Source: Candidatus Moraniibacteriota bacterium (GTDB taxonomy: Bacteria > Patescibacteriota > Minisyncoccia > Moranbacterales > GCA-2747515). Taken from it: a DNA stretch of 64,000 nucleotides. The DNA lies in NCBI GenBank assembly GCA_046116545.1, contig CP175956.1, positions 385,734 to 449,733 of the forward strand. Direction: 5' to 3'. The notes under the pieces were generated by a model, which saw only the letters and a program-made list of their open reading frames with translations, searched no databases and had not been told where the DNA came from. Positions 5,668 through 63,041 of this stretch are shown piece by piece. The position numbers and the translations under genes were made by a program. Positions within the stretch are counted from its first letter, which is position 1. The number at the start of each line of letters is the position of its first letter.

Positions 5668-6762
5668 TTATACACGGAATTCCAAAAACTTTTTTGGACC
5701 CCATAATTCTATAACCAAATCATTTAACATTGCATACATTTCCCATGCATCTTGTGCACGTTGCCGCGGACTCTCAAGTGTAAAAAACTTGAGAAATCTC
5801 TGCAGCGCAGCGTTCACAGATGCAGGCATTGCATTTGTTTTTACATCACCACCAAGCGCAAAGATCATCGTTTTCCCTAGAGAATAGAGATCTGATGCTG
5901 GTAACGGTGACTTTTTCTGCACAACTTCTGGTGCACTAAATTCCTCATTAAATACCTTGAACCCATCATTTGTTCGTGCAGGATTCAGAGCACTATAACA
6001 CCAGTCAATAAGCCATGCGTTATGATCTTTTGGTCGAATCATAATATGTGATGGATCGATGTTTCCATGTACACAACCTTGACTATGTACATAACCAAGC
6101 GCACTAAGCGCACGGTTCATCATCCATACAACATGCTTCTGATCAATACCATATTTCCATCGCGAACTTTCACGAATAGAATATAAGTCATGACCATCAA
6201 TGTACTCCATTATCGTTCCAAGTTGTCCATCACTGGTCTTGAATCGATCCAAAAGTACTGGAAGATGTTTCAATTGACTTGCAGGATTATCTTTGAACAA
6301 TCGCAAAATTTTAATCTCATTTTGCATCAAATCATTATCTGCACTATCATCAACAACTTTTACAACAACTGGACCAGTAAATGCATCTCCAATCGCCTGA
6401 CCACCATACACAACACTTAAATCACCTTCTGCAAGCGTCTTTGTGACAGTATACGTATTTTTACGAGTTTGAATCGTAAATGATTCACTATCTGAAATAT
6501 CAGTTTGTTCTTCAGATAATGTGTCTCCGTATATGCCTTGCGTCAATTTTCGAGTTGCCTTTACATAATACTCAGTCAACTTTACAAAAGCATCATTTGC
6601 CTGCACATTACCATTATTTCTATCTGGATGTACAACTTTTGATAACTGCCTAAAAGTACTTTTAACAAAAGCTGCATTTGCTTCAATGCCAAAGATATCC
6701 TCAGGATATTGTGCACATTCTATTCGCTCACATACAACTGTAAGTTCTCCCATTGCTTTCAC
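5668..6762 (-). CDS. J-domain (DnaJ-like, HPD motif) fused to protein-kinase-like domain, probable pseudokinase
   Basis: N-term ...FRQLSKVVHPDRNNGNVQANDAFVKLTEYY (HPD J-domain); kinase-like VVVKVV / EIKILRLF / catalytic-loop position VHGNIDPSHIMI (HRDLKPEN with D->N and K->D) / LIDWCYS (DFG-like) / SAPEV (APE). Confidence 0.55.
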   Translation of the reverse strand: MKAMGELTVVCERIECAQYPEDIFGIEANAAFVKSTFRQLSKVVHPDRNNGNVQANDAFVKLTEYYVKATRKLTQGIYGDTLSEEQTDISDSESFTIQTRKNTYTVTKTLAEGDLSVVYGGQAIGDAFTGPVVVKVVDDSADNDLMQNEIKILRLFKDNPASQLKHLPVLLDRFKTSDGQLGTIMEYIDGHDLYSIRESSRWKYGIDQKHVVWMMNRALSALGYVHSQGCVHGNIDPSHIMIRPKDHNAWLIDWCYSALNPARTNDGFKVFNEEFSAPEVVQKKSPLPASDLYSLGKTMIFALGGDVKTNAMPASVNAALQRFLKFFTLESPRQRAQDAWEMYAMLNDLVIELWGPKKFLEFRV

Positions 6763-33134: not shown

Positions 33135-34268
33135 TTATTTTTTATTTTGTAACATATCCATCAATTTTATAAAGAATTTCAAATTGTGTAAAGCTGCCAT
33201 TTGCGCTCCGAGGGGCTCACCCACTTTAAATAAATGATGGATATACCCCCTAGTATAATTTTGACATGCGTAACAATCACATTTTTCATCAATTGGCGTA
33301 AAGTCATCTTTAAATTTAGCATTTCCTATATTCATAGTACTATAAAAATCTCCGCTCTCATCAATTTTTATATCATTATGCACAAATAATCTACCATGTC
33401 TTCCTTCTCTAGTCGGTATAACACAATCAAACATATCCCATCCTAAGTTATGACATTTTACAATATCTAATGGCGTACCAATACCAAGAGCAAATCGTGG
33501 ACTTTCTTCTGGCATAAATGATGCTGTCTTAGCTACAATTTCTTCCATGAAATTACCCTCATCATCCACATGTCGTCCACCAAAACTATATCCATCAAAA
33601 CCAATTTTAACTAATTCCTTTGCACACTTCTCTCGCAAATAGACAAAGGGTCCACCCTGCACAACTGCAAAGAGTAATGGTCGTGTACTATCATCAAAAC
33701 CTCTTGCTTTAACTTGTTTATCAAATTCAACTCTGCAACGTCCAGCCCACCGAATAGTTCTATCGACCGCTGCAATAATTTCATCTTCTGGAGCATTGTT
33801 TGGACGAGGATCATCTAGCAATACCATCATATCAACTCCCAAATCAAACTGAATTTGAATTGCTTTTTCTGGTGTAAGTAAGTGTTTTGAACCATCTAAT
33901 ACACTTTTAAAAACGGCCCCTTCTTCTGTAATTTTACCAAGCTTTGCATTCTTGTGTATTAAAGAATAAACTTGATATCCTCCACTATCTGATAGAAGTG
34001 GTCCATCCCAATTCATAAATTCATGAACTCCCCCAGCATCCTTCATCAAATCCATTCCCGGCTGTAAAAGTAAATGATAAGTATTTACCACCATAGGATG
34101 TACACCAACACTTTTTAACTGCTCATTAGTAATTCCTCTAATACTTGCCCGAGTAGCATCCGGCATGAAAAACGGCGTTTGAATATCACCCTTACGAGTT
34201 TTCAAAATGCCAACCCTAGCTTTATTATTTTGTTCTTTAATTTCAAAATGCATAATATTAATTGTCAT
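33135..34268 (-). CDS. tgt: queuine tRNA-ribosyltransferase (Tgt)
   Basis: FFMPDATRASI, LLSDSGGYQV, zinc site CDCYACQNYTRGYIHHL; 377 aa. Confidence 0.85.
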   Translation of the reverse strand: MTINIMHFEIKEQNNKARVGILKTRKGDIQTPFFMPDATRASIRGITNEQLKSVGVHPMVVNTYHLLLQPGMDLMKDAGGVHEFMNWDGPLLSDSGGYQVYSLIHKNAKLGKITEEGAVFKSVLDGSKHLLTPEKAIQIQFDLGVDMMVLLDDPRPNNAPEDEIIAAVDRTIRWAGRCRVEFDKQVKARGFDDSTRPLLFAVVQGGPFVYLREKCAKELVKIGFDGYSFGGRHVDDEGNFMEEIVAKTASFMPEESPRFALGIGTPLDIVKCHNLGWDMFDCVIPTREGRHGRLFVHNDIKIDESGDFYSTMNIGNAKFKDDFTPIDEKCDCYACQNYTRGYIHHLFKVGEPLGAQMAALHNLKFFIKLMDMLQNKK

Positions 34269-34300
34269 TGCGAGGAGGTACGACGAAGCAATCTTGATAA
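34263..34300. repeat. partial copy of same element overlapping the tgt start codon
   Basis: ttgtcattgcgaggaggtacgacgaagcaatcttgataaa; the CAT of tgtCATt is the tgt ATG on the minus strand. Confidence 0.55.
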
Positions 34301-34492
34301 ATTTATCTAAATCTCGACAAGACCAATCTCCTTATTGAATCTAAACAATACCACCAAAATACTCAAAAATCAATGCTAACGTTTGTAATTATTCAGGTTT
34401 ATCTTATAAATAGTAGCCTGTCATTCCAGAAATAACATTGTCCGGAATCTTTCGAGTGTGTTTAAATGAATTCTTGTATTATAGTATTAGAT

Positions 34493-34519
34493 TCCTGCCT
34501 TCGCAGGAAAGACAATTGG
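34493..34519. repeat. small palindromic unit (tcctgccttcgcagga + aagacaa)
   Basis: same CTTC-loop palindrome type as 52826-52850. Confidence 0.45.
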
Positions 34520-50282: not shown

Positions 50283-50328
50283 TAAAAAAACACTTAGGGA
50301 CAGGTTTCAAACCTGTCCCTATTTTGTT
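50283..50328 (+). terminator. gyrA intrinsic terminator
   Basis: agggacaggtt-tcaa-acctgtccct-attttgtt. Confidence 0.75.
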
Positions 50329-50349: not shown

Positions 50350-50400
50350 CTTTTTTAAAAAATACAAACCCGTAGGATACTTATATCCACACGGGTTTTA
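50350..50400 (-). terminator. terminator for minus-strand small-gene array
   Basis: aaacccgt-aggatacttatatccac-acgggttt with T-run on minus strand. Confidence 0.6.
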
Positions 50401-50406
50401 TTGATT

Positions 50407-50838
50407 CTATTCTAGCAATACAAATACTTCACCAGCCTTTTGTGCAATTCTGATCATTTCTTCTCTTTCTTTGTTTTGCATCTTTGTTCCATTGCCCCAT
50501 ATAAGATCTCTGACGTGAGGTGTTCTAAAAATACTTTTTGGCAAATCTATATTCATATAACAGACCTTCGTTGCCAACAATAGTGGGAATTTAGGAATAA
50601 GCACTCTCTTTTCCCAAGAAAACTGGTCAATTACCCCTAAATACAAATAATCCTCTTTTGCTGGACTAATAATTAGTACATTGCCCTCTTCAACAAATGT
50701 AAGGTTCATCCCCAATTGCAAAAATTCTTTAGTATATTGTGCTGCATTTTCACTAATAAACTCAAGTCTCAACTCAAGAACCTCACAAATTATACATTGC
50801 TCTTCCTTAATAAAAAAATCTTTGATTTGTTCTTTCAT
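50407..50838 (-). CDS. hypothetical protein (member of small-gene tandem array)
   Basis: 143-aa ORF with good SD (GGGAGGAG) 8 nt upstream; conserved ~40-nt motif 39-79 nt upstream. Confidence 0.4.
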   Translation of the reverse strand: MKEQIKDFFIKEEQCIICEVLELRLEFISENAAQYTKEFLQLGMNLTFVEEGNVLIISPAKEDYLYLGVIDQFSWEKRVLIPKFPLLLATKVCYMNIDLPKSIFRTPHVRDLIWGNGTKMQNKEREEMIRIAQKAGEVFVLLE

Positions 50839-50876
50839 AACTAAACTCCTCCCAATATTTACTTTAAAGAACTAGT

Positions 50877-50917
50877 CCTCTTATAAAACTACGACTATTC
50901 GTAATCTTGATGAGAGG
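50877..50917 (-). promoter_or_regulatory. conserved ~40-nt upstream motif of small-gene array (copy 1)
   Basis: cctcttataaaactacgactattcgtaatcttgatgagagg. Confidence 0.45.
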
Positions 50918-50953
50918 AGCAAGAAGATTAAATTCAAACTCCTTGCCCACAAA

Positions 50954-51490
50954 CTACAGAGGAATTTTTTCCACTTTAGGAATCTCCAATTCATACTCCT
51001 TTTTGTAATACCCCATATCACCAGGCTGAAATCCTGCCCAAAGACCTGACATATCTGGAGCTTCATACTCTCCAGAAATGATAGCAACATCTTCTTTGAA
51101 GGTGATCTCATTAACTGTCCATTTTCGCATCCCTCCTATTGAGCTAAAGAACAGCTCTTCTCCTTTAAGTATTACAATGTAACTCCCCGCTGACACCCAG
51201 CTTGTGCCAGAGCTTTTATCGTGTAAACATTGACGGAGACTATCTTCAGTTTCCTCCATCCAAACACTTGTGTCCATACGACTTTCTTGTCGCACAAATA
51301 CAATCTCAATATCTGAGCTTGGACTTGGTAATATATAGATATGACCTCTAAGAAGTTTTTTATATTCATTATTACACCGTCTACCATACACATAACCATA
51401 GTAATGACTACTAATTGTACTAGTGGTATTTTTAACCTTAACCAACATTTTTTCCAGTTTACTCATGACAATCTCCTTGTATATTTTCAT
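50954..51490 (-). CDS. hypothetical protein (member of small-gene tandem array)
   Basis: 178-aa ORF, SD GTAGGAG upstream; conserved upstream motif. Confidence 0.4.
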   Translation of the reverse strand: MKIYKEIVMSKLEKMLVKVKNTTSTISSHYYGYVYGRRCNNEYKKLLRGHIYILPSPSSDIEIVFVRQESRMDTSVWMEETEDSLRQCLHDKSSGTSWVSAGSYIVILKGEELFFSSIGGMRKWTVNEITFKEDVAIISGEYEAPDMSGLWAGFQPGDMGYYKKEYELEIPKVEKIPL

Positions 51491-51502
51491 AAAGAACTTT
51501 CA

Positions 51503-51533
51503 CTCCTACAAAACTATGAGAAATTCATAATCT
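51503..51533 (-). promoter_or_regulatory. conserved upstream motif (copy 2)
   Basis: ctcctacaaaactatgagaaattcataatct. Confidence 0.45.
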
Positions 51534-51549
51534 ATTATTTTTATAAAAC

Positions 51550-51954
51550 TCATTCAGGACGAACTATATATTCTTTGAAGATTTCAACTAATTTTCCATC
51601 CTCAGTATATCCTGTAATACGTCTATAACGCCGAGCAGTTTCTCCTTTGATTTCTTTTTCAAGAAAATTTAAAATTAATTTTGGAAAATCTTCAACCATC
51701 CTATCTATATCAGCACAATCTATAATATGCATCTCATCAAAAACCGATGAGAGATGATCCGTCTTATGATATTCTTTTTTACAAGTGCCGTCGCATCTGC
51801 CAAATACATCTAAATAAATGCTCAAAAAATACTTCCCACTCGAATATAATCTTAAGTGAACGCCTTTATGACATATCATAACAAAATCTTTAGTATCATT
51901 TGACTCATGGGTACTTGATATTGGACCAAAAAAAGTCATTGGCATGTCTTTCAT
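51550..51954 (-). CDS. hypothetical protein (member of small-gene tandem array)
   Basis: 134-aa ORF, SD AAGAGGA 7 nt upstream; conserved upstream motif. Confidence 0.4.
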   Translation of the reverse strand: MKDMPMTFFGPISSTHESNDTKDFVMICHKGVHLRLYSSGKYFLSIYLDVFGRCDGTCKKEYHKTDHLSSVFDEMHIIDCADIDRMVEDFPKLILNFLEKEIKGETARRYRRITGYTEDGKLVEIFKEYIVRPE

Positions 51955-51986
51955 ATTACATCCTCTTTTTTTAAAGAAAAACTACT

Positions 51987-52027
51987 CTCCTACAAAATCA
52001 TGAACTATTCATAATTTTGATTAGAGG
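51987..52027 (-). promoter_or_regulatory. conserved upstream motif (copy 3)
   Basis: ctcctacaaaatcatgaactattcataattttgattagagg. Confidence 0.45.
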
Positions 52028-52073
52028 GGTAAGCAGTTTAGATTTAAACTTCTTACCCTTATGCTGGAATGGA

Positions 52074-52409
52074 CTACCTATAGTCCGCACCTGTTACCAC
52101 ACTTCTAAAGAAATACTCAAATCTCCAACTAGTATCATAATGTTCATAAAATCTTATTTCCTTTATTAATTCTCTTACTCTCTCTATTGTTTCTTTCGGC
52201 ATAAAAATATCAACTGCCCTATTCAATTTATTATTCTTAACATTCTCAAATATGCCCTGTAACAACTCATATAACTCCCTCTGTCTTTTAGAACTATCCA
52301 CAGCAATACCAGATACTACTATTTTCATATCATTGATATAAAAAGTGTATTGTATTGAACATGATACGCTCATTCCCATTCCTTCCTGCAAAGTAACTTT
52401 CATTATCAT
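52074..52409 (-). CDS. hypothetical protein (fourth member of small-gene tandem array; lacks the upstream motif)
   Basis: 111-aa ORF. Confidence 0.35.
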   Translation of the reverse strand: MIMKVTLQEGMGMSVSCSIQYTFYINDMKIVVSGIAVDSSKRQRELYELLQGIFENVKNNKLNRAVDIFMPKETIERVRELIKEIRFYEHYDTSWRFEYFFRSVVTGADYR

Positions 52410-52651
52410 CTCCCTATTTTTGAGTTATTTTCTTTAAAAAAACTGTTTATTACGATTTCTTTAGTGTTTCATCGTAACAGTGTATAATACCCCATTTTTA
52501 CAAGGAAGTCAATATTTGTGTCTAGTTTTATGTTGTAAAATGCTTATTTTTTGTGTTAAATGCTAGGTTTGTGGGTTATTTTATATTTAGTAGTCAGTAT
52601 TATTGACTATTTGGGTTATTTGTGATATACTTGTGTTATCCTAAGGCTTTC

Positions 52652-52748
52652 GTCATTACGGGGAGGTACGACGAGGCAATCTCGATAAATTTTACGATAA
52701 TCTTACTGAGTTTGCTTCCTCGTCGTACCTCCTCCTCGCAAAGACAAT
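52652..52748. repeat. complete MITE-like element with terminal inverted repeats
   Basis: gtcattacggggaggtacgacgagg ... cctcgtcgtacctcctcctcgcaaagacaa. Confidence 0.6.
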
Positions 52749-52758
52749 AGTCCTCTAT

Positions 52759-52850
52759 TTGTCATTCCCGCGAAGGCGGGAATTTTTCGAAAAGTACAGA
52801 TACATTCATTTTACATGCAGAAAGATACCTGCCTTCGCAGGTATGACACA
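52759..52850. repeat. two further palindromic units (tttgtcattcccgcgaaggcgggaat; acctgccttcgcaggtatgacaca)
   Basis: stems with GAAG/CTTC loops flanked by gtcatt / atgaca motifs. Confidence 0.5.
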
Positions 52851-52905: not shown

Positions 52906-53649
52906 ATGGAAAAAGTAAAAGCACTTGAGGATTTGGGACTTAGTGAGAAGGAAGCAAAAGTTTATCTTGCTCTTTTGGAGTTGGGTCAGGCTTCTGCTTA
53001 TCGCGTGGCTCAGAAATCCGGTGTCAAAAAACCAACAACTTATGTGTTGTTGGATGAACTTCGGAAGAAGGAACTAGTTATCAAGATGCCCGGAGATGCT
53101 ACTCAGATGTTTATTGCCAAATCTCCTGAGGAGTTTTTTGCATCTGCGAGGTATCGAGTTAATAATGCTATTGAGAGTTTGCCTGAGATTCTCTCTGTCA
53201 TGAAAAAACAAAACAAAGTACGTACTATGTACTTTGAAGGCATCAATGGCTTAAAACAAGCACTGTGGCATGAAATGAAGTCGAATGCTGGTGGTGAACT
53301 CATTGGGTTTTATGCTAAGGCTGAAAATATGAGTAAAGAGCTCTATGACCTGACATGGAAGTGGGCTGAAGATACAAAAAAATACGATATATCATTAAGG
53401 GGTTTTGTACCTACACATGATACTGTCACGGACTATCGTAAAGCTGACAAAAAATATAATCGTGAGATGAGACCACTGCCCTACGAAGATTATTCATCAG
53501 AAACATCTCTTGATGTAATGAATGACTTTGTTCGCATAATTGATCTAACTGCAGATAATCCTCAAGCAATAATTATAGAAAATGAGCGAATGGCAAAAAT
53601 GGTAAGACAAATTTTTGAAATGATGTGGAAATTAACCACTCCTAGTTAA
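52906..53649 (+). CDS. TrmB-family transcriptional regulator (intact paralog)
   Basis: N-terminal wHTH LGLSEKEAKVYLALLELGQASAYRVAQKSGVKKPTTYVLLDELRKKELV typical of TrmB; 247 aa. Confidence 0.65.
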   Translation: MEKVKALEDLGLSEKEAKVYLALLELGQASAYRVAQKSGVKKPTTYVLLDELRKKELVIKMPGDATQMFIAKSPEEFFASARYRVNNAIESLPEILSVMKKQNKVRTMYFEGINGLKQALWHEMKSNAGGELIGFYAKAENMSKELYDLTWKWAEDTKKYDISLRGFVPTHDTVTDYRKADKKYNREMRPLPYEDYSSETSLDVMNDFVRIIDLTADNPQAIIIENERMAKMVRQIFEMMWKLTTPS

Positions 53650-53945: not shown

Positions 53946-53986
53946 AAAAGCCTCTGGAATATAAATATTCCAGAGGCTTTTTTTCT
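53946..53986. terminator. bidirectional intrinsic terminator
   Basis: aaaagcctctggaatat-aaat-attccagaggcttttttt. Confidence 0.75.
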
Positions 53987-54443
53987 ACAACCTTACCCAA
54001 TTTATTTCATTATAACAACTTTTTGTTTGTATAAAAAAATATCTTTTATTACAATGTCTTACGTCTATAATTTCTGCGTGACGACAAGCTCCTGTAAAAT
54101 GGCTAGTATCTCCATTATGACTGATTTTAATGTTATGACTCATTTGCTGTGAAAAGTCTTTTCTTGGTAATCCAAAATTTTCTATCTTATCTCTATCATA
54201 AATTTCTGACTCATAATAATCAAACAATCTTATATCACCAAATCTGGATATTTGCTTAATTACCCTGATCTGCAATGAGCCGCTTACAAGTATCCTCTCT
54301 TCCTGAGTACTTACTACATGTCCTGTAAGTTTAATAAATTCCATTGGGACAACTATTGCTCCGCCATTTATTGGCACATCAAACCTCTCCTGTGCTGGTT
54401 GAAATAAACATTTTCTTACTTGTACTCTTTCCTCTCGATCCAT
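53985..54443 (-). CDS. hypothetical protein
   Basis: 152-aa ORF; His-rich patches (HNIKISHNGDTSHFTGACRH) but no secure family. Confidence 0.3.
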   Translation of the reverse strand: MDREERVQVRKCLFQPAQERFDVPINGGAIVVPMEFIKLTGHVVSTQEERILVSGSLQIRVIKQISRFGDIRLFDYYESEIYDRDKIENFGLPRKDFSQQMSHNIKISHNGDTSHFTGACRHAEIIDVRHCNKRYFFIQTKSCYNEINWVRL

Positions 54444-54601: not shown

Positions 54602-54835
54602 CTATAGAAGTCCCATTAAATTGAATAGAGTCATCGTCATTGCTGGCACTAATGCTAACAATACAGCGAACTCTGTGTCGTTTGAGTGTTTGTGCAATCG
54701 AAAACTTTTCATTTGTGTTTGCCCTGTTTCTGTTGATGTTGATTCCTCTGTTGTTGGTTCTTCTGGTGTTACTACAGCATCTTCATCACCACCACATTGG
54801 CAGCCACATGTTGCACATTTTTTTAATTCAGCCAT
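54602..54835 (-). CDS. small Cys-rich, C-terminally membrane-anchored peptide (hypothetical); coding strand ambiguous
   Basis: MAELKKCATCGCQCGGDED... then acidic linker and C-terminal TM (FAVLLALVPAMTMTLFNLMGLL); antisense ORF 54640..54858 (His-rich tail) is an alternative. Confidence 0.25.
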   Translation of the reverse strand: MAELKKCATCGCQCGGDEDAVVTPEEPTTEESTSTETGQTQMKSFRLHKHSNDTEFAVLLALVPAMTMTLFNLMGLL

Positions 54836-56352: not shown

Positions 56353-59300
56353 CTAGTCTTGAACAACTGGTGTCCAATTATCAGATCCTGTACATACGAA
56401 TAGGTATACTTCTGAAGAATTACCTCCAACAGTAACCGTACTTCCATTAGTGTCCACAAATATTTCACCTGTAGAACATCCCGCTGGTGCAGAAGTTCCA
56501 TGATCAATTATTGTATGTGCACTACTGAAGTCTGCATCACCATCAACTGACAAATCATTTGCAATAGTAACATCATTACTTACAGTAATATTATCAGCAT
56601 CAAGGTCATCTACATCGTCAATATCAGTATCACCCATATCGATACCTCCATTAGCTGTAAGAAGTCCAGATAATGTAGCAGTTCCAATATTTGTAATATT
56701 GCCACCATTCATATCTAGTCCACCTGTGATGTTTAATCCACCTGATGAAACTGTAAGAGTGTCACCAAACGTAGATGTTGTTGTAACACTTAATGAATCT
56801 ACATCAGCATTACTTGCAATAGTTATGCCTTCAAACATTGCATCACCAGTTGCTCGTATTTCCCAATCAGCGTCAAAGATTGCTGTATCAGCACCATTAT
56901 GACCAATTCTGATTTGAGCTGCATCAGCTCCAGCTGTTCCAAGATTTATAACTGAATCAGGTCCTCCTGTATTATCAGCATTTGTAAGACCTGTTAAGAA
57001 ATTCAATGAATCAGCATAGATTGTAGACCATCTAGATCCACTCGTACCAAGAGCATCACCAGTAATTACACCGTCAACATCAAGATTAGTTTTACCTACT
57101 CCTGCATTACGGATATTTAATGTATTACTTGTTGATACTAACTCACCACCAACCATAGACAATGTACCATCAGTTATTTCTGTTGCAGTAACTGTTCCAG
57201 TAGTTGTCAAAGCTATATCATCAGCTAAGTCATCATTTGTTATAGTCCCATCTAAAATTTTATCAGTTGTAACTGCATCGCTAGCAAGTTTTACATTTGT
57301 TACAGCAGTATCTGCTAATTTTGCAGAAGAAACTGCTAGATCAGCAATTTTAGCTGTTGTTACTGCATTGTCTCTAATCGCTAGAGTTGCATATTGACCA
57401 AACACATCACCATCAAAATTTGTAGTTGTATATAGACCATTTGTTACAGTGTCTGCATTTCCTGTTAGGTCTCCTATGAAATTAGGAGAAGTAATAGTAC
57501 TAGTTGTAGCAATTGTAATATCATTTGCTAAATCATCACCTGTAATTGTATTATCTACAACCTTATCAGTTGTAACAGCATCACTAGCAAGTTTTACATT
57601 TGTTATAGCAGCATCTGCAATTTTAGCTGTTGTTACTGCACTGTCAACTATTTTAGCTGTTGTTACTGAATTATCTGCAAGTTTAGCAGGTGTAATTGCA
57701 CTGTCTGCAATTTTACCTTCTACTATTGAAGCATCAGCAATTTTACTTGTTATTACTGAACCGTCTGCAAGCTTAGAAGTAGTTACAGCAGTATCAACAA
57801 TTTTAGCTGTTGTTACTGAACCGTCTGCTAGTTTTATTTCTGTTATTGCGTTATTTAGCACCTTTGCAGTAGTAACTGCATCATCTGCTAAATCAATTGT
57901 AACTATTGTACCATCTTCTATTTTTCCACTTGTTACAGCACCGTCAACTATTTTAATAGTAGTCACACTACCATCAGCAAGTTTTACAGTCGTTATAATT
58001 CCATCTGCAAGATCTCCTACCAAAATTGTACCATCAACTATTTTACCAGTTGTAACACTATTATCAGCAAGTTTTATAGTTGTTATAGCTCCATCTACAA
58101 GTTTTCCGCCTGTGATCGTAGCATCAAGAATTTTTGCAGCAGTTACAGAACCATCAGCAAGTTTTACAGTTGTTATAGCTAAATCTTCAACCTTTGAAGT
58201 TACTACAGCACCATCTGCTAATTTTATTTCTGTTATTGCATTATCTTGAATCTTTGCAGTAGATACTGAACCATCTGCAAGATTTGTTTCAACTATAGTA
58301 CCATTTGCTAATTTACCAGCAGTTACAGCACCATCAGCAATTTTACTTGTTATTACTGAACCATCTGCAAGTTTAGAAACAATAACTGCACTATCAGCTA
58401 ATTGAATACTACCAACTCCCCCATCGGCAATACCTATATCATCAGTTCCAACAGTTATTCCTGTTCCTGCTCCAATATTTAGAGTTACTGTAGCAGTAGT
58501 TCCACCACCAGTAAGTCCATCACCAGCAACAACATCACTTATAGTACCTGTTCCAACATTTGCTTCTATTGTCCAAGAACCATCAACATTATTTGTAACA
58601 GTTGTGTTTGGACCAGCAACAATTGACTTCACCATGCTTCCATCAGAAGCAAGTTTATCTCCTGTCAAAGTTCCATCAGCTACTTGAGCTCCTGTGATTT
58701 GACCCACAATTTTTGAAGCTGCAACACCTGTTAACCAAGATGGATCATTGTATGAACCAGTTGTATAAACACCATCAGTTACAGTTTCTGCATTTCCTGT
58801 AATGTTTGCAACTACATCAGATGTGAATGTTTTTACACCATCTATGATTTGATCACCAATAGTATAAACACCATTAGTTACAGTATCTGCATTACCTGTT
58901 AAATTTCCATTTATATTTCCTGCTGTAATATCACCAGTTGTAGTAATGTTTCCACCAGTTAGCACTGTAGTTCCATCAGTAAATGATAGCGCTGTTACAG
59001 TACCTGTTGAATTAATAGTAATATCAGCAGCTAATTTTACCCCACTAATTTCACCATCTCCTATTTTTACATTTGTTACAGCACCATCGGCAATTTTCAC
59101 TGTAGTCACAGATCCATCTGCTAATTTTACTGTTGTTACAGCACCATCTGCTAATTTACCATTAGTTACTGCTCCATTTTCTATTTTTGCAGTCATCACT
59201 GCATCATCTGCAAGTTTCACACCAGTAATAGCACCATCAGTGATTTTACCAGTTGTTATACTTCCATCTGCAAGTTTTATATTTGTTATTGCTCCATTCT

Positions 59301-59760
59301 CTACTTTTGCAGTAGAAACAGCACCATCGGCAATTTTGACAGAAACAACTGCTCCATCCATTATCTTGCCAGATACTATAGCACCGTCTTCGATCTTTAC
59401 ACTTGTAATAGATCCATCTTCAAGTTTGGTTGCAGTCAAAACTCCGTCTTTAAGATCATCCGCTTGGATTTGACCATCAAGATCAAGTTTTTTGTATGCA
59501 ATTTTTGCATTACTTGAGATATCTTCGTTCTTAATTCGTTTTGCAAATGTAATCATTTGCGCAACAGTACCATCCTTAAGTACTACCGGCACCATACTCC
59601 TAACTATAGCTTCTCTAGTTTTTGCATTTGTTTGCAAAAAACTAATACCCACCACTAAAACAGTAACCATCGCAATGATTGTTACTTTTTGTAGAGATGA
59701 TACTCCACGCTTCACATTTATGAAACGAGCTTCTCCTCTTTTATCGTTTTTTAAATTCAT
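56353..59760 (-). CDS. 1135-aa membrane-anchored surface protein built from ~14-residue phage-tail-fibre-type tandem repeats
   Basis: N-terminal TM (VTIIAMVTVLVVGISFL); dozens of repeats of the form (K/T)(I/L)ADG(A/S)VT(T/S)xKIxDGAIT; tail-fibre-like blocks LTGNADTVTNGVYT(I/T); plus-strand ORFs 57449..58249 and 58946..59473 are antisense shadows. Confidence 0.7.
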   Translation of the reverse strand: MNLKNDKRGEARFINVKRGVSSLQKVTIIAMVTVLVVGISFLQTNAKTREAIVRSMVPVVLKDGTVAQMITFAKRIKNEDISSNAKIAYKKLDLDGQIQADDLKDGVLTATKLEDGSITSVKIEDGAIVSGKIMDGAVVSVKIADGAVSTAKVENGAITNIKLADGSITTGKITDGAITGVKLADDAVMTAKIENGAVTNGKLADGAVTTVKLADGSVTTVKIADGAVTNVKIGDGEISGVKLAADITINSTGTVTALSFTDGTTVLTGGNITTTGDITAGNINGNLTGNADTVTNGVYTIGDQIIDGVKTFTSDVVANITGNAETVTDGVYTTGSYNDPSWLTGVAASKIVGQITGAQVADGTLTGDKLASDGSMVKSIVAGPNTTVTNNVDGSWTIEANVGTGTISDVVAGDGLTGGGTTATVTLNIGAGTGITVGTDDIGIADGGVGSIQLADSAVIVSKLADGSVITSKIADGAVTAGKLANGTIVETNLADGSVSTAKIQDNAITEIKLADGAVVTSKVEDLAITTVKLADGSVTAAKILDATITGGKLVDGAITTIKLADNSVTTGKIVDGTILVGDLADGIITTVKLADGSVTTIKIVDGAVTSGKIEDGTIVTIDLADDAVTTAKVLNNAITEIKLADGSVTTAKIVDTAVTTSKLADGSVITSKIADASIVEGKIADSAITPAKLADNSVTTAKIVDSAVTTAKIADAAITNVKLASDAVTTDKVVDNTITGDDLANDITIATTSTITSPNFIGDLTGNADTVTNGLYTTTNFDGDVFGQYATLAIRDNAVTTAKIADLAVSSAKLADTAVTNVKLASDAVTTDKILDGTITNDDLADDIALTTTGTVTATEITDGTLSMVGGELVSTSNTLNIRNAGVGKTNLDVDGVITGDALGTSGSRWSTIYADSLNFLTGLTNADNTGGPDSVINLGTAGADAAQIRIGHNGADTAIFDADWEIRATGDAMFEGITIASNADVDSLSVTTTSTFGDTLTVSSGGLNITGGLDMNGGNITNIGTATLSGLLTANGGIDMGDTDIDDVDDLDADNITVSNDVTIANDLSVDGDADFSSAHTIIDHGTSAPAGCSTGEIFVDTNGSTVTVGGNSSEVYLFVCTGSDNWTPVVQD
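57560..59480 (-). repeat. in-frame tandem 42-nt (14-aa) coding repeats within the tail-fibre-repeat protein gene (two blocks, approx.)
   Basis: protein-level periodicity KIxDGAVTxxKLADGSVTT...; nucleotide copies divergent. Confidence 0.55.
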
Positions 59761-62105: not shown

Positions 62106-63041
62106 ATGCAACAAAATCTAAAAAAACTTGTGTCTGACTATTTAGAATATTTAGAAGTTGAATTAAATAGAAGTCCTAAAACAATTGAAAATTATGATCA
62201 TTATTTAACTAGATTTATTAATTTTATACAAAAAAAGTATGTAATTACTTCTCCTGAAAATATTTCTCTTGATATCGTACATAAATATAGAGTTTATTTA
62301 CACAGATATGAAATGAATGATGGATCTACATTTAAAATCTCAACTCAAAATTATCATGTTATTGCCTTGCGAAACTTTCTTAAATATTTATCAAAACAAG
62401 ATATTAAAACACTCTCTGCTGAAAAAATAGAGATAGGAAAAGCACCTCAACGAGAGGTGGAATTTCTAGAACCTGAAGAAGTTGAGCGGTTATTGTTAGC
62501 TGCTGATGGTCCAAATCGTAGCGCAAAAAGAGATCGCGCATTATTGGAATTGTTATTTTCAGCTGGACTCCGTGTTTCTGAATTAGTCTCAATTGATATT
62601 GAAGATATTAACTTAGATAGACAAGAATTTAGCGTAAAAGGTAAGGGTGCTAAAATAAGACTTGTTTTTATATCTAATACAGCAAAAAATGCTATTACTA
62701 AATATTTAAATGCTCGCAACGATATTGATCCTGCACTATTTATACGAGATAAGGTTGGCACAAATAAAGAAGCTGATGCCAAGGGATTGCGACTGACACC
62801 AAGAAGTGTACAAAGAATTGTAAAAAAATATGCAACAAAAGCTGGTATAGTAAAAAACGTTCACCCACATACGTTGAGACATTCTTTTGCTACTGACTTA
62901 CTACAAAATGGTGCTGATATAAGAAGTGTGCAAGAAATGCTTGGTCATGCAAACATAACAACAACTCAAATTTATACACATATAACAAATAAAAACCTTA
63001 AAAATATACATGATAAATTTCATGGTAAAAATTCTTCCTAA
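62106..63041 (+). CDS. tyrosine site-specific recombinase, XerC/XerD family
   Basis: R..(SELVSI), HTLRHSFATDLLQNGADIRSVQEMLGH, catalytic Tyr in TTQIYTH; 311 aa. Confidence 0.8.
   Translation: MQQNLKKLVSDYLEYLEVELNRSPKTIENYDHYLTRFINFIQKKYVITSPENISLDIVHKYRVYLHRYEMNDGSTFKISTQNYHVIALRNFLKYLSKQDIKTLSAEKIEIGKAPQREVEFLEPEEVERLLLAADGPNRSAKRDRALLELLFSAGLRVSELVSIDIEDINLDRQEFSVKGKGAKIRLVFISNTAKNAITKYLNARNDIDPALFIRDKVGTNKEADAKGLRLTPRSVQRIVKKYATKAGIVKNVHPHTLRHSFATDLLQNGADIRSVQEMLGHANITTTQIYTHITNKNLKNIHDKFHGKNSS

Follow-up and report, generated by a model that had tools for sequence, protein, structure and literature searches.

In a 64,000-nucleotide (nt) stretch of DNA from a Candidatus Moraniibacteriota bacterium (contig CP175956.1; the whole stretch is referred to as the window) four consecutive small genes on the minus strand are separated by short spacers sharing a conserved motif, which raises the question of what such a motif does between genes that are not related to each other. 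A sequence-only reading of the window had taken the motif to be about 40 nt long and the genes to be individually promoted, and had compared the array to immunity-protein or accessory-gene arrays. The analysis described here suggests that the genes form a single operon, situated in a hypervariable accessory island between trmB and gyrA in this lineage of the candidate phyla radiation (CPR), and that the operon is punctuated by a larger, two-hairpin module proposed to act between cistrons in RNA processing or stabilisation and in translation initiation, a reading to which we would give about an even chance.

The four open reading frames (ORFs), XLQ20568 to XLQ20565, are all annotated as hypothetical and were present as the sequence-only reading had described them: ORF1 (52409-52074, 111 aa), ORF2 (51954-51550, 134 aa), ORF3 (51490-50954, 178 aa as listed) and ORF4 (50838-50407, 143 aa). 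Codon-usage log-odds, trained on the long genes of the window, are positive in the annotated frames only, and the open stretches measure 181, 154, 143 and 111 codons compared with a mean of 62 and a maximum of 127 in shuffled sequence, so that codon usage together with length beyond that of shuffled sequence supports taking all four as genuine genes. Two of the starts are probably located further downstream, at 52403 in ORF1 (109 aa), which is favoured by a better spacing to the Shine-Dalgarno sequence (SD), and at 51466 in ORF3 (170 aa), since every ORF3 orthologue starts with MSKLEK, matching the start at 51466; the longer ORF3 would overlap the conserved tail and SD described below. The spacers are 119 nt (ORF1-ORF2), 59 nt (ORF2-ORF3, or 83 nt with the start at 51466) and 115 nt (ORF3-ORF4).

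A scan for σ70 promoters (-35 and -10 hexamers with 16–18 nt spacing) revealed one good minus-strand promoter upstream of ORF1, TTGACT-17 nt-TATTAT at 52484–52512 (10 out of 12 positions matching), but none on the minus strand in the three spacers. A few nucleotides past the predicted transcription start, where the transcript should have its 5' end, a leader hairpin begins (CUGUUACGAU...AUCGUAAUAAACAG, 52443–52480, minus strand) which leads directly into UUCUUUA and an A-rich tract, present here as a degenerate GTTTTTTTAAAGAAAAT tail at 52443-52427. At the other end of the array an intrinsic terminator is located at 50357–50398 (minus strand; hairpin followed by UUUGUAUUUUUU, -18.5 kcal/mol, z = -4.6), and beyond it a bidirectional terminator hairpin at 50295–50321 is common to the array and the convergent gyrA. 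One promoter, none in the spacers and a canonical terminator at the end indicate a single polycistronic operon, predicted to run from the promoter (52512-52484) through the leader hairpin and four cistrons to the terminator (50398-50357), and the claim that the genes are individually promoted therefore does not hold. It also follows that the conserved motif is most simply regarded as a transcribed, intercistronic RNA structure and not as a promoter.

The beginning of the operon is itself conserved. The window shares its promoter and ~70 nt at the start of the leader with three other loci (L015, L004 and L009; loci outside the window are given L numbers), and this despite only 27% identity between its TrmB-family protein and that of L009. 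The leader hairpin is kept in L015, L009, L010 and L011, with changes from C-G to A-U pairs in the latter two, where a related hairpin opens arrays neighbouring a TrmB-family gene (L010) and an AsnC-type gene (L011). In total, a hairpin at the predicted start followed by the UUCUUUA/A-rich motif can be found in six loci. In the window the TrmB-family helix-turn-helix regulator gene is located divergently at 52906–53649 (plus strand), and counterparts adjoin the arrays in L015, L009 and L010.

When analysing the spacers, an 82-nt direct repeat was found to be common to ORF1-ORF2 and ORF3-ORF4 (72% identity), of which only 48 nt (73% identity) can be found between ORF2 and ORF3. On the coding strand the element forms a module of 72–95 nt consisting of a variable hairpin 1 (HP1, for example GGGUAAGAAGUUUAAAUCUAAACUGCUUACCC), a directly abutting and sequence-conserved hairpin 2 (HP2, CUCUAAUCAAAAUUAUGAAuagUUCAUGAUUUUGUAGGAG) and, after a gap of 3–6 nt, the sequence AGTTCTTTA, an A-rich stretch, an SD and the ATG of the next gene. 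The base of HP2 is CCUCU/AGGAG, its internal loop is conserved and its upper stem measures 11–12 bp. Both full copies fold into two adjacent hairpins on the coding strand (z = -6.3 and -4.5; -27 to -29 kcal/mol for the whole element), and their HP2 differ by compensatory changes, AUGAA/UUCAU versus ACGA/UCGU. For the 29-nt core no chance match is expected in the window.

All copies lie on the minus strand. In element 1, HP1 (GGGTAAGAAGTTTAAATCTAAACTGCTTACCC, 52027–52058) begins 15 nt past the stop codon of ORF1 and is followed by HP2 (CTCTAATCAAAATTATGAATAGTTCATGATTTTGTAGGAG, 51987–52026) and a tail at 51955–51986 with a degenerate GTTTTTCTTTA, an A-run and the SD AGAGGA in front of the ORF2 ATG; the whole element scores 95.6 bits (E ~2e-17 to 4e-17) with the covariance model (CM) described below. 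Element 3 has HP1 (GGCAAGGAGTTTGAATTTAATCTTCTTGCT, 50918–50947) 6 nt past the ORF3 stop, so that HP1 begins 6–15 nt past the upstream stop codon in the window, then HP2 (CCTCTCATCAAGATTACGAATAGTCGTAGTTTTATAAGAGG, 50877–50917) and a tail at 50839–50876 consisting of CTAGTTCTTTAAAG, an A/T-rich stretch and the SD GGGAGGAG ahead of the ORF4 ATG (85.2 bits, E ~3e-15 to 5e-15). Element 2 is decayed: HP1 and the CCTCT base are lost, the 3' half of HP2 (AGATTATGAATTTCTCATAGTTTTGTAGGAG, 51503–51534) and the tail (51467–51502, with AAAGTTCTTTAT, an A-rich stretch and the SD AAGGAGA just before the ORF3 start at 51466) are kept, the fold is not significant and the CM gives E = 0.4-0.9. The same tail and SD precede the ORF3 orthologues. 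The motif of the sequence-only reading is in other words real and non-random, but it corresponds to HP2, which is one part of a longer and more structured module, and its presence in three of the four upstream regions stands for two full copies and one decayed; upstream of ORF1 neither hairpin can be found, only the promoter, the leader hairpin and the degenerate tail motif.

Neither hairpin resembles an intrinsic terminator, since no U-tract follows HP1 (the next sequence is CUCUAAUC) or HP2 (a 3–6 nt spacer and then AGUUCUUUA), unlike the terminators at the ends of the arrays in the window and in L005, and neither was picked out by the scan that detected the bidirectional terminator. A search of the window with Rfam at gathering thresholds gave no matches, and at E <= 10 the array region gave three hits, none of which overlaps the elements on the coding strand. 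Hammerhead, pistol, twister and hatchet ribozymes as well as guanidine-II and ANTAR motifs were compared by their known features and rejected, the loops being conserved neither in sequence nor in length and no Rfam hit being obtained. A short reading frame within HP2 (ATG-AAT-AGT-TCA-TGA) was also ruled out, as copies with ACG or GCG in place of the ATG have no start codon.

Scans with an exact pattern found the element elsewhere only in metagenome-assembled genomes (MAGs) of Moraniibacteriota, namely L006 and L009, and, in the same architecture, in six metagenome contigs outside any bin; two other hits, L007 in a Bacilli MAG and L014, lack the hairpins and were judged to be chance matches. 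The same scan of viral contigs gave no match, nor was any DNA similarity between the array region and collections of phages or plasmids found, and an origin from either was rejected on these grounds. A CM built from the 19 pattern-found copies (detection threshold E <= 1e-6) extended the set to 24 copies in eleven sources, all Moraniibacteriota MAGs or metagenome contigs, and revealed tandem arrays of three and four copies in L013, L006 and L009. The motif hence recurs in related genomes and always in the same kind of array, usually beside a divergent TrmB-family gene and the conserved promoter and leader.

The alignments of these copies carry the evidence for an RNA structure. In the 19-copy alignment 92.7% of the cells are paired, compared with 41-51% (about 45%) for slid partners, and double changes occur in 14 pairs. 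In the CM alignment of 24 copies 97.4% of the cells are paired and 19 out of 29 pairs have double changes, values not reached by any of 500 shuffles; an alignment fitted to the model leans towards the structure, but the slid controls and the independent 19-copy alignment agree with it. Among the non-Watson-Crick cells of the 24 copies G-U outnumbers A-C by 77 to 9 (53 to 5 in HP2 alone), and fully compensated pairs are reached by transitions through G-U intermediates. The sense fold is more stable than the antisense fold in 23 of the 24 copies (mean -26.5 versus -19.4 kcal/mol, p = 2e-5), and every copy lies on the coding strand of its flanking ORFs. The G-U bias, the asymmetry of the folds and the co-orientation imply that selection acts on the structure as formed by the sense transcript, and the sequence comparisons thereby point to an element working as structure in the mRNA and not as a double-stranded DNA site or an attC site.

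These results bear directly on the possibility, implied in the sequence-only reading, that the motif is a signal in double-stranded DNA such as a promoter for each gene or a TrmB operator. A TrmB-family gene is recurrently adjacent, dimeric regulators bind long imperfect palindromes such as HP2, and weak -10-like hexamers are found in the A/T-rich tail. Such a site would nevertheless leave the compensatory changes and the 53:5 bias in HP2 unexplained, and a palindrome bound by protein as double strand would not be expected to fold better on one strand than on the other; the spacers have no promoter-like sites, and GTTCTTTA also occurs in the leader, downstream of the predicted transcription start. 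A double-stranded signal is accordingly regarded as extremely unlikely.

A selfish or neutral repeat, spread within these loci in the manner of a miniature inverted-repeat transposable element (MITE) or a repetitive extragenic palindromic (REP) sequence and without function for the operon, would also be short, rich in palindromes, intergenic and repeated, and a decayed copy is present in the window. One copy (L016, 21-113, on a short metagenome contig) is moreover located beside a transposase gene of the rve family (IS3/IS481-type, 175-981), and some copies are flanked by similar strings containing AGTTC. Against this, a CM scan of the 64-kb window with filters off found no copy outside the array, the other weak hits being generic terminator palindromes, and all 24 copies are co-oriented with their genes, whereas the unrelated GC-rich MITE-like repeats of this genome are dispersed. 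The substitutions, compensatory and G-U-biased across diverged genomes, show selection on the fold of the transcript, and the element keeps its place between the stop codon and the SD, which makes this explanation very unlikely. REP sequences and bacterial interspersed mosaic elements (BIMEs) are short palindromic repeats that can lie between the genes of an operon and stabilise the upstream mRNA; REPs occur genome-wide and in both orientations, while the element, judging from the 64-kb window and the 24 copies, keeps to one type of array and one orientation.

The position of the element follows a few rules. HP1 usually starts within ~15 nt of the upstream stop codon and sometimes overlaps it, the distance being ~75-85 nt in two copies of L004, and where a gene follows, HP2 usually ends 28–39 nt before the ATG, or further away where an extra small hairpin is inserted. 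Between translationally coupled genes (the pairs of 136/112 aa and 111/147 aa in L013, L006 and L012) no element is found. Every unit thereby opens with a 5' hairpin and the UUCUUUA/A-rich/SD region, continues with one or two ORFs and closes with a 3' hairpin; the 5' hairpin is the leader hairpin in the first unit and HP2 in later ones, and the 3' hairpin is HP1 or, in the last unit, the terminator. This symmetry agrees with selective RNA processing and stabilisation (SRPS), as do the location of HP1 and the absence of promoters and terminators within the operon.

The proposed mechanism is post-transcriptional, with the element punctuating the transcript between cistrons. HP1 would serve as the protective 3' hairpin of the upstream cistron and HP2 as the 5' hairpin of the unit that follows, a counterpart of the leader hairpin with which the primary transcript opens, while the single-stranded AGUUCUUUA, the A-rich tract and the strong SD would offer a standard context for translation initiation. 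Most likely an endonuclease or an RNA-binding protein would recognise HP2, at which the transcript would be processed, the conservation of its sequence and internal loop implying a specific partner of either kind. Each unit of one or two genes could in this way become an autonomous, stabilised message from one TrmB-associated promoter, and the CCUCU/AGGAG base together with the UCUUU of the tail could in addition modulate access to the SD. As a by-product the repeated modules of 80–90 nt may supply the homology by which units are gained, lost and reshuffled, and the cassette-like turnover would be explained in this way.

Among the closest described parallels is the cip-cel operon of Clostridium cellulolyticum, where intercistronic stem-loops set the ends and the stability of segments cut from a polycistronic RNA by SRPS, and where, as here, stem-loops without U-tracts are situated between cistrons just past the stop codon and bracket single cistrons or pairs (PMC4423207). 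In the window array, too, cistrons within the operon end in a stable stem-loop that no U-tract follows. The stem-loops of the SRPS operons are idiosyncratic in sequence, while the composite of HP1, HP2 and AGUUCUUUA tail is reiterated across genomes as the genes change. A second likeness is with phage T7, whose early genes are joined by reiterated, irregular RNase III hairpins with an internal loop; once these are cut, the upstream message ends in a 3' hairpin, and the leaders that follow are U/A-rich with a strong SD, that of T7 gene 10 carrying UUAACUUUAA. By analogy, the element combines related hairpins with an internal loop at gene junctions and a tail reading AGUUCUUUAA, but it belongs to a cellular chromosome, has two abutting hairpins in place of one, and its HP2 is only 16–17 bp long.

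Several points weigh against processing and stabilisation, which are proposed from sequence comparison. Three copies (L004 1610-1695, L006 4494-4571 and L009 2248-2334) are followed by no gene and have no intact tail, which indicates that the tail belongs to the downstream initiation region and that HP1-HP2 can stand alone at a 3' end, and also that a role in the 5' untranslated region cannot be the whole story. HP1 abuts HP2 with no single-stranded linker, leaving no obvious site for an endonuclease, and the leader hairpins, which HP2 would mirror, are weak when folded one by one (z from +0.1 to -2.7). The conservation of HP2 exceeds what a passive stabiliser would need, and a partner is implied which could be a regulator, a nuclease or even a ligand. 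Part of its invariance stems from the search pattern, although the five copies found by the CM alone (E <= 1e-6) keep the same features.

The same conservation is the starting point for the main rival, in which HP2, with or without the AGUUCUUUA tail, would bind a protein or ligand and switch downstream translation or elongation, no cleavage being involved. It could take the form of a translational repressor site, a switch based on anti-SD and SD mimicry, or a signal for processive antitermination like put or EAR. HP2 is conserved in sequence besides its pairing, and its AU/UA internal loop is kept also in the copies found by the CM alone; the CCUCU:AGGAG base mimics an anti-SD/SD pair, and the UCUUU of the tail can pair with the real SD in the fold of spacer 3. 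The distance from element to start codon is fairly constant, and the element also precedes housekeeping genes at the ends of arrays, dcd in L006 and maf in L013. On the other hand there are few conserved unpaired nucleotides and the loops vary in sequence and in length (3–10 nt), unlike riboswitches or ANTAR targets, no Rfam match appears even at permissive thresholds, no candidate binding protein was identified, and neither the location of HP1 close to the upstream stop nor the three copies without a downstream gene fit an operator. A non-cleaving operator, riboregulator or antitermination signal is for these reasons considered rather unlikely, though it is the strongest competitor. The put RNAs of phage HK022, which consist of two closely abutting hairpins, and the EAR of Bacillus subtilis resemble the element in being cis-acting RNAs within operons; they share no sequence or Rfam similarity with it, occur once or twice per operon and not before every unit, and no internal terminators that would need suppression are evident here.

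Between the elements the genes change rapidly, which supports the earlier suggestion of an accessory-gene array: the genes are ORFans, and close relatives carry different ones at the same locus. Relatives with 87–90% identical GyrA or TrmB have almost no array genes in common with the window. In L004, where GyrA is 89.6% identical to that of the window and the synteny on the gyrA side is the same, the array consists of a 138-aa gene, a 134-aa gene, an interval without a gene and then an ORF3 homologue, and in L005 of a partial gene, a 161-aa gene, an ORF3 homologue and a 108-aa gene. The ORF3 family is found at different positions in four arrays, and on the contigs with ORF3 homologues the same two-hairpin element separates different genes; even the distant homologue in L017 has diverged HP1, HP2 and tail before it, with a terminator and maf after it. 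L013 and L006 differ by a single additional unit, a gene together with an element, in L013.

Such turnover recalls integrons and the clusters of attC sites lacking integron-integrases (CALINs), which share with the array the single orientation of promoterless ORFans behind a single promoter, related structured repeats of 60–140 nt and a changing content. An integron-like recombination site would let units of one or two ORFs plus the element be captured, excised and reshuffled at a TrmB-flanked platform, with GTTCTTTA as crossover core and the hairpins acting as single-stranded DNA. Promoterless, co-oriented cassettes of variable content behind a common promoter are what is found, close relatives have different units between the same elements, the ORF3 family shifts position and exactly one gene plus element unit separates L013 from L006. 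In addition, the element length of 72–95 nt lies inside the attC size range, and AGTTCTTTA is found after the promoter leader as well as after the internal elements, the identity between these two contexts in L004 starting there.

The signatures of an integron are nevertheless missing. A regular-expression search of spacers and flanks on both strands found no attC boxes R'' (RYYYAAC) and R' (GTTRRRY) at 50–140 nt distance, the junction motif being GTTCTTTA. attC sites fold on the bottom strand as a single hairpin, whereas the element forms two independent hairpins with the sense fold favoured, and its G-U (G-T) pairs accumulate on the sense strand (77 versus 9). A scan of 10 window ORFs of 272–415 aa found one tyrosine recombinase, at 62106-63041 (plus strand), ~10 kb from the array, which scores 255 bits as XerC/XerD and 139 bits as an integron integrase (cut-off 265) and is most likely the housekeeping dif recombinase; no IntI was found among the scanned ORFs or among the recorded Pfam hits within ~10 kb of the array, and no recombinase adjoins any of the arrays examined. 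Without the boxes and the single bottom-strand hairpin, and with a recombinase of Xer type, the locus is not an integron. The breakpoints are furthermore not limited to one core, as a leader module of ~130 nt precedes two different ORFs in L004, and such mosaic joints favour homologous exchange between repeats. That the element keeps a fixed distance to the start codons suggests, in turn, that it works as RNA. Recombination at the element is therefore held to be unlikely. Quite improbable, too, is an undescribed Moraniibacteriota cassette platform, in which a TrmB-associated promoter and leader ending in GTTCTTTA would be followed by ORFan cassettes of one or two genes, captured and reshuffled there and delimited by the two-hairpin element, serving both as recombination site and as expression or processing signal; the element may then be recognised single-stranded on the sense strand, making the platform an analogue of integrons with no homology to attC or IntI. 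In the literature nothing relevant was found on intergenic RNA motifs in Moranbacteria or CPR bacteria, nor on integrons in CPR.

The L004 leader module belongs to a second conserved non-coding module of ~110-130 nt, CAGTCGGGC...CCGAC...CAGCTGATG...GATATTGGAGAT, situated after the GTTCTTTA/A-rich motif at L004 190-322 and 900-1126, L015 ~1410-1275 (minus strand) and L009 ~3040-2905 (minus strand). It is located before different first-cassette ORFs, twice in L004, is absent from the window and may be another structured leader. Among the genes of the related arrays, stand-alone divergent receiver (CheY-like) domains are recurrent beside other orphan families (L006 921-1364 and 2303-2716; L013 614-1024 and 2248-2691; L011 4330-4917; L005 292-777; L015 291-806). 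Some of them pair with a small partner gene through overlapping stop and start codons, and the receiver protein of L011 has a C-terminal extension rich in CxxC.

The proteins of the window array give few clues to the function of the operon. None of the four gave anything above noise in Pfam, PADLOC, PHROGs or NCBIfam, a match to Drt1a (E = 6e-4 over 41 residues of a 1232-position model) being judged spurious, and PDB sequence searches were empty. A word-indexed search of 5.8 billion protein clusters with ORF2, ORF3 and ORF4 found no homologues of ORF2 and ORF4 and two relatives of ORF3, and a profile of the ORF3 family searched against 1.84e9 representatives added one further true relative together with weak matches to repetitive beta-proteins that are probably compositional; ORF3 belongs to a tiny beta-rich orphan family, and no family was found for ORF1. 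AlphaFold2 models were too poor for fold searches (predicted local distance difference test score, pLDDT, 48 for ORF3 and 37 for ORF4). An all-against-all BLASTP of the four proteins excluded paralogy, as had been proposed. The comparison to immunity proteins, on the other hand, found nothing to build on: a family, whether an immunity family or a domain of unknown function, could not be assigned to any of the four, and among the recorded Pfam hits of genes within ~10 kb no toxin domain is recognisable, several of these genes having no hit at all. What remains of the earlier interpretation is the accessory array, without individual promotion or immunity proteins.

To our knowledge the post-transcriptional biology of CPR bacteria, which have tiny genomes and are mostly uncultured, is essentially unknown, and new here is a lineage-restricted RNA module, supported by covariation, punctuating TrmB-associated operons of hypervariable small genes. 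Absent from Rfam, it is a candidate for a new class of structured RNA, and its behaviour is that of a portable 'expression adaptor' placed between orphan genes that are unrelated and turn over fast, at a fixed chromosomal hotspot adjoining a conserved regulator. If the element works in processing and stabilisation, a minimal genome would be able to place arbitrary new genes under one promoter and give them uniform mRNA ends and ribosome entry; if it works in recombination, it would represent a new system of cassette capture. With either, the CM provides a handle for locating hypervariable accessory islands in Moraniibacteriota genomes, islands that probably mediate interactions with hosts, phages or the environment, and the interest of the module would rise if it proved to be a cassette-capture site or to have a dedicated processing enzyme.

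The surroundings of the array agree with the earlier description of terminators, a TrmB-family gene and palindromic repeats. GC-rich palindromic repeats resembling MITE or REP sequences (GTCATTRCGRGGAGGTACGACGARGCAATC..., AGATWCCTGCCTTCGCAGGWAWGACA) fill the intergenic region between trmB and the array (52640-52850), the segment 52640-52760 forming a long hairpin (-43 kcal/mol, z = -5.6), and related copies at 34264-34304 and 34489-34514 show them to be dispersed; their sequence is unrelated to HP1-HP2. Beyond trmB two further orphans of 152 aa (53985-54443) and 77 aa (54602-54835) are located on the minus strand; in the smaller a cluster of Cys residues (CATCGCQCGG) near the N-terminus is combined with a hydrophobic C-terminus. 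L015, a close relative, lacks the 152-aa gene, showing that the variability reaches beyond the array. Further away, an ORF of 1135 aa (56353-59760, minus strand) contains extensive periodic repeats of 30 nt (10 residues), has no Pfam hit and is probably a repetitive surface protein, and the ORF at 5668-6762 (minus strand) unusually joins a Ser/Thr protein kinase domain to an N-terminal DnaJ-like segment that falls just under the Pfam cut-off.

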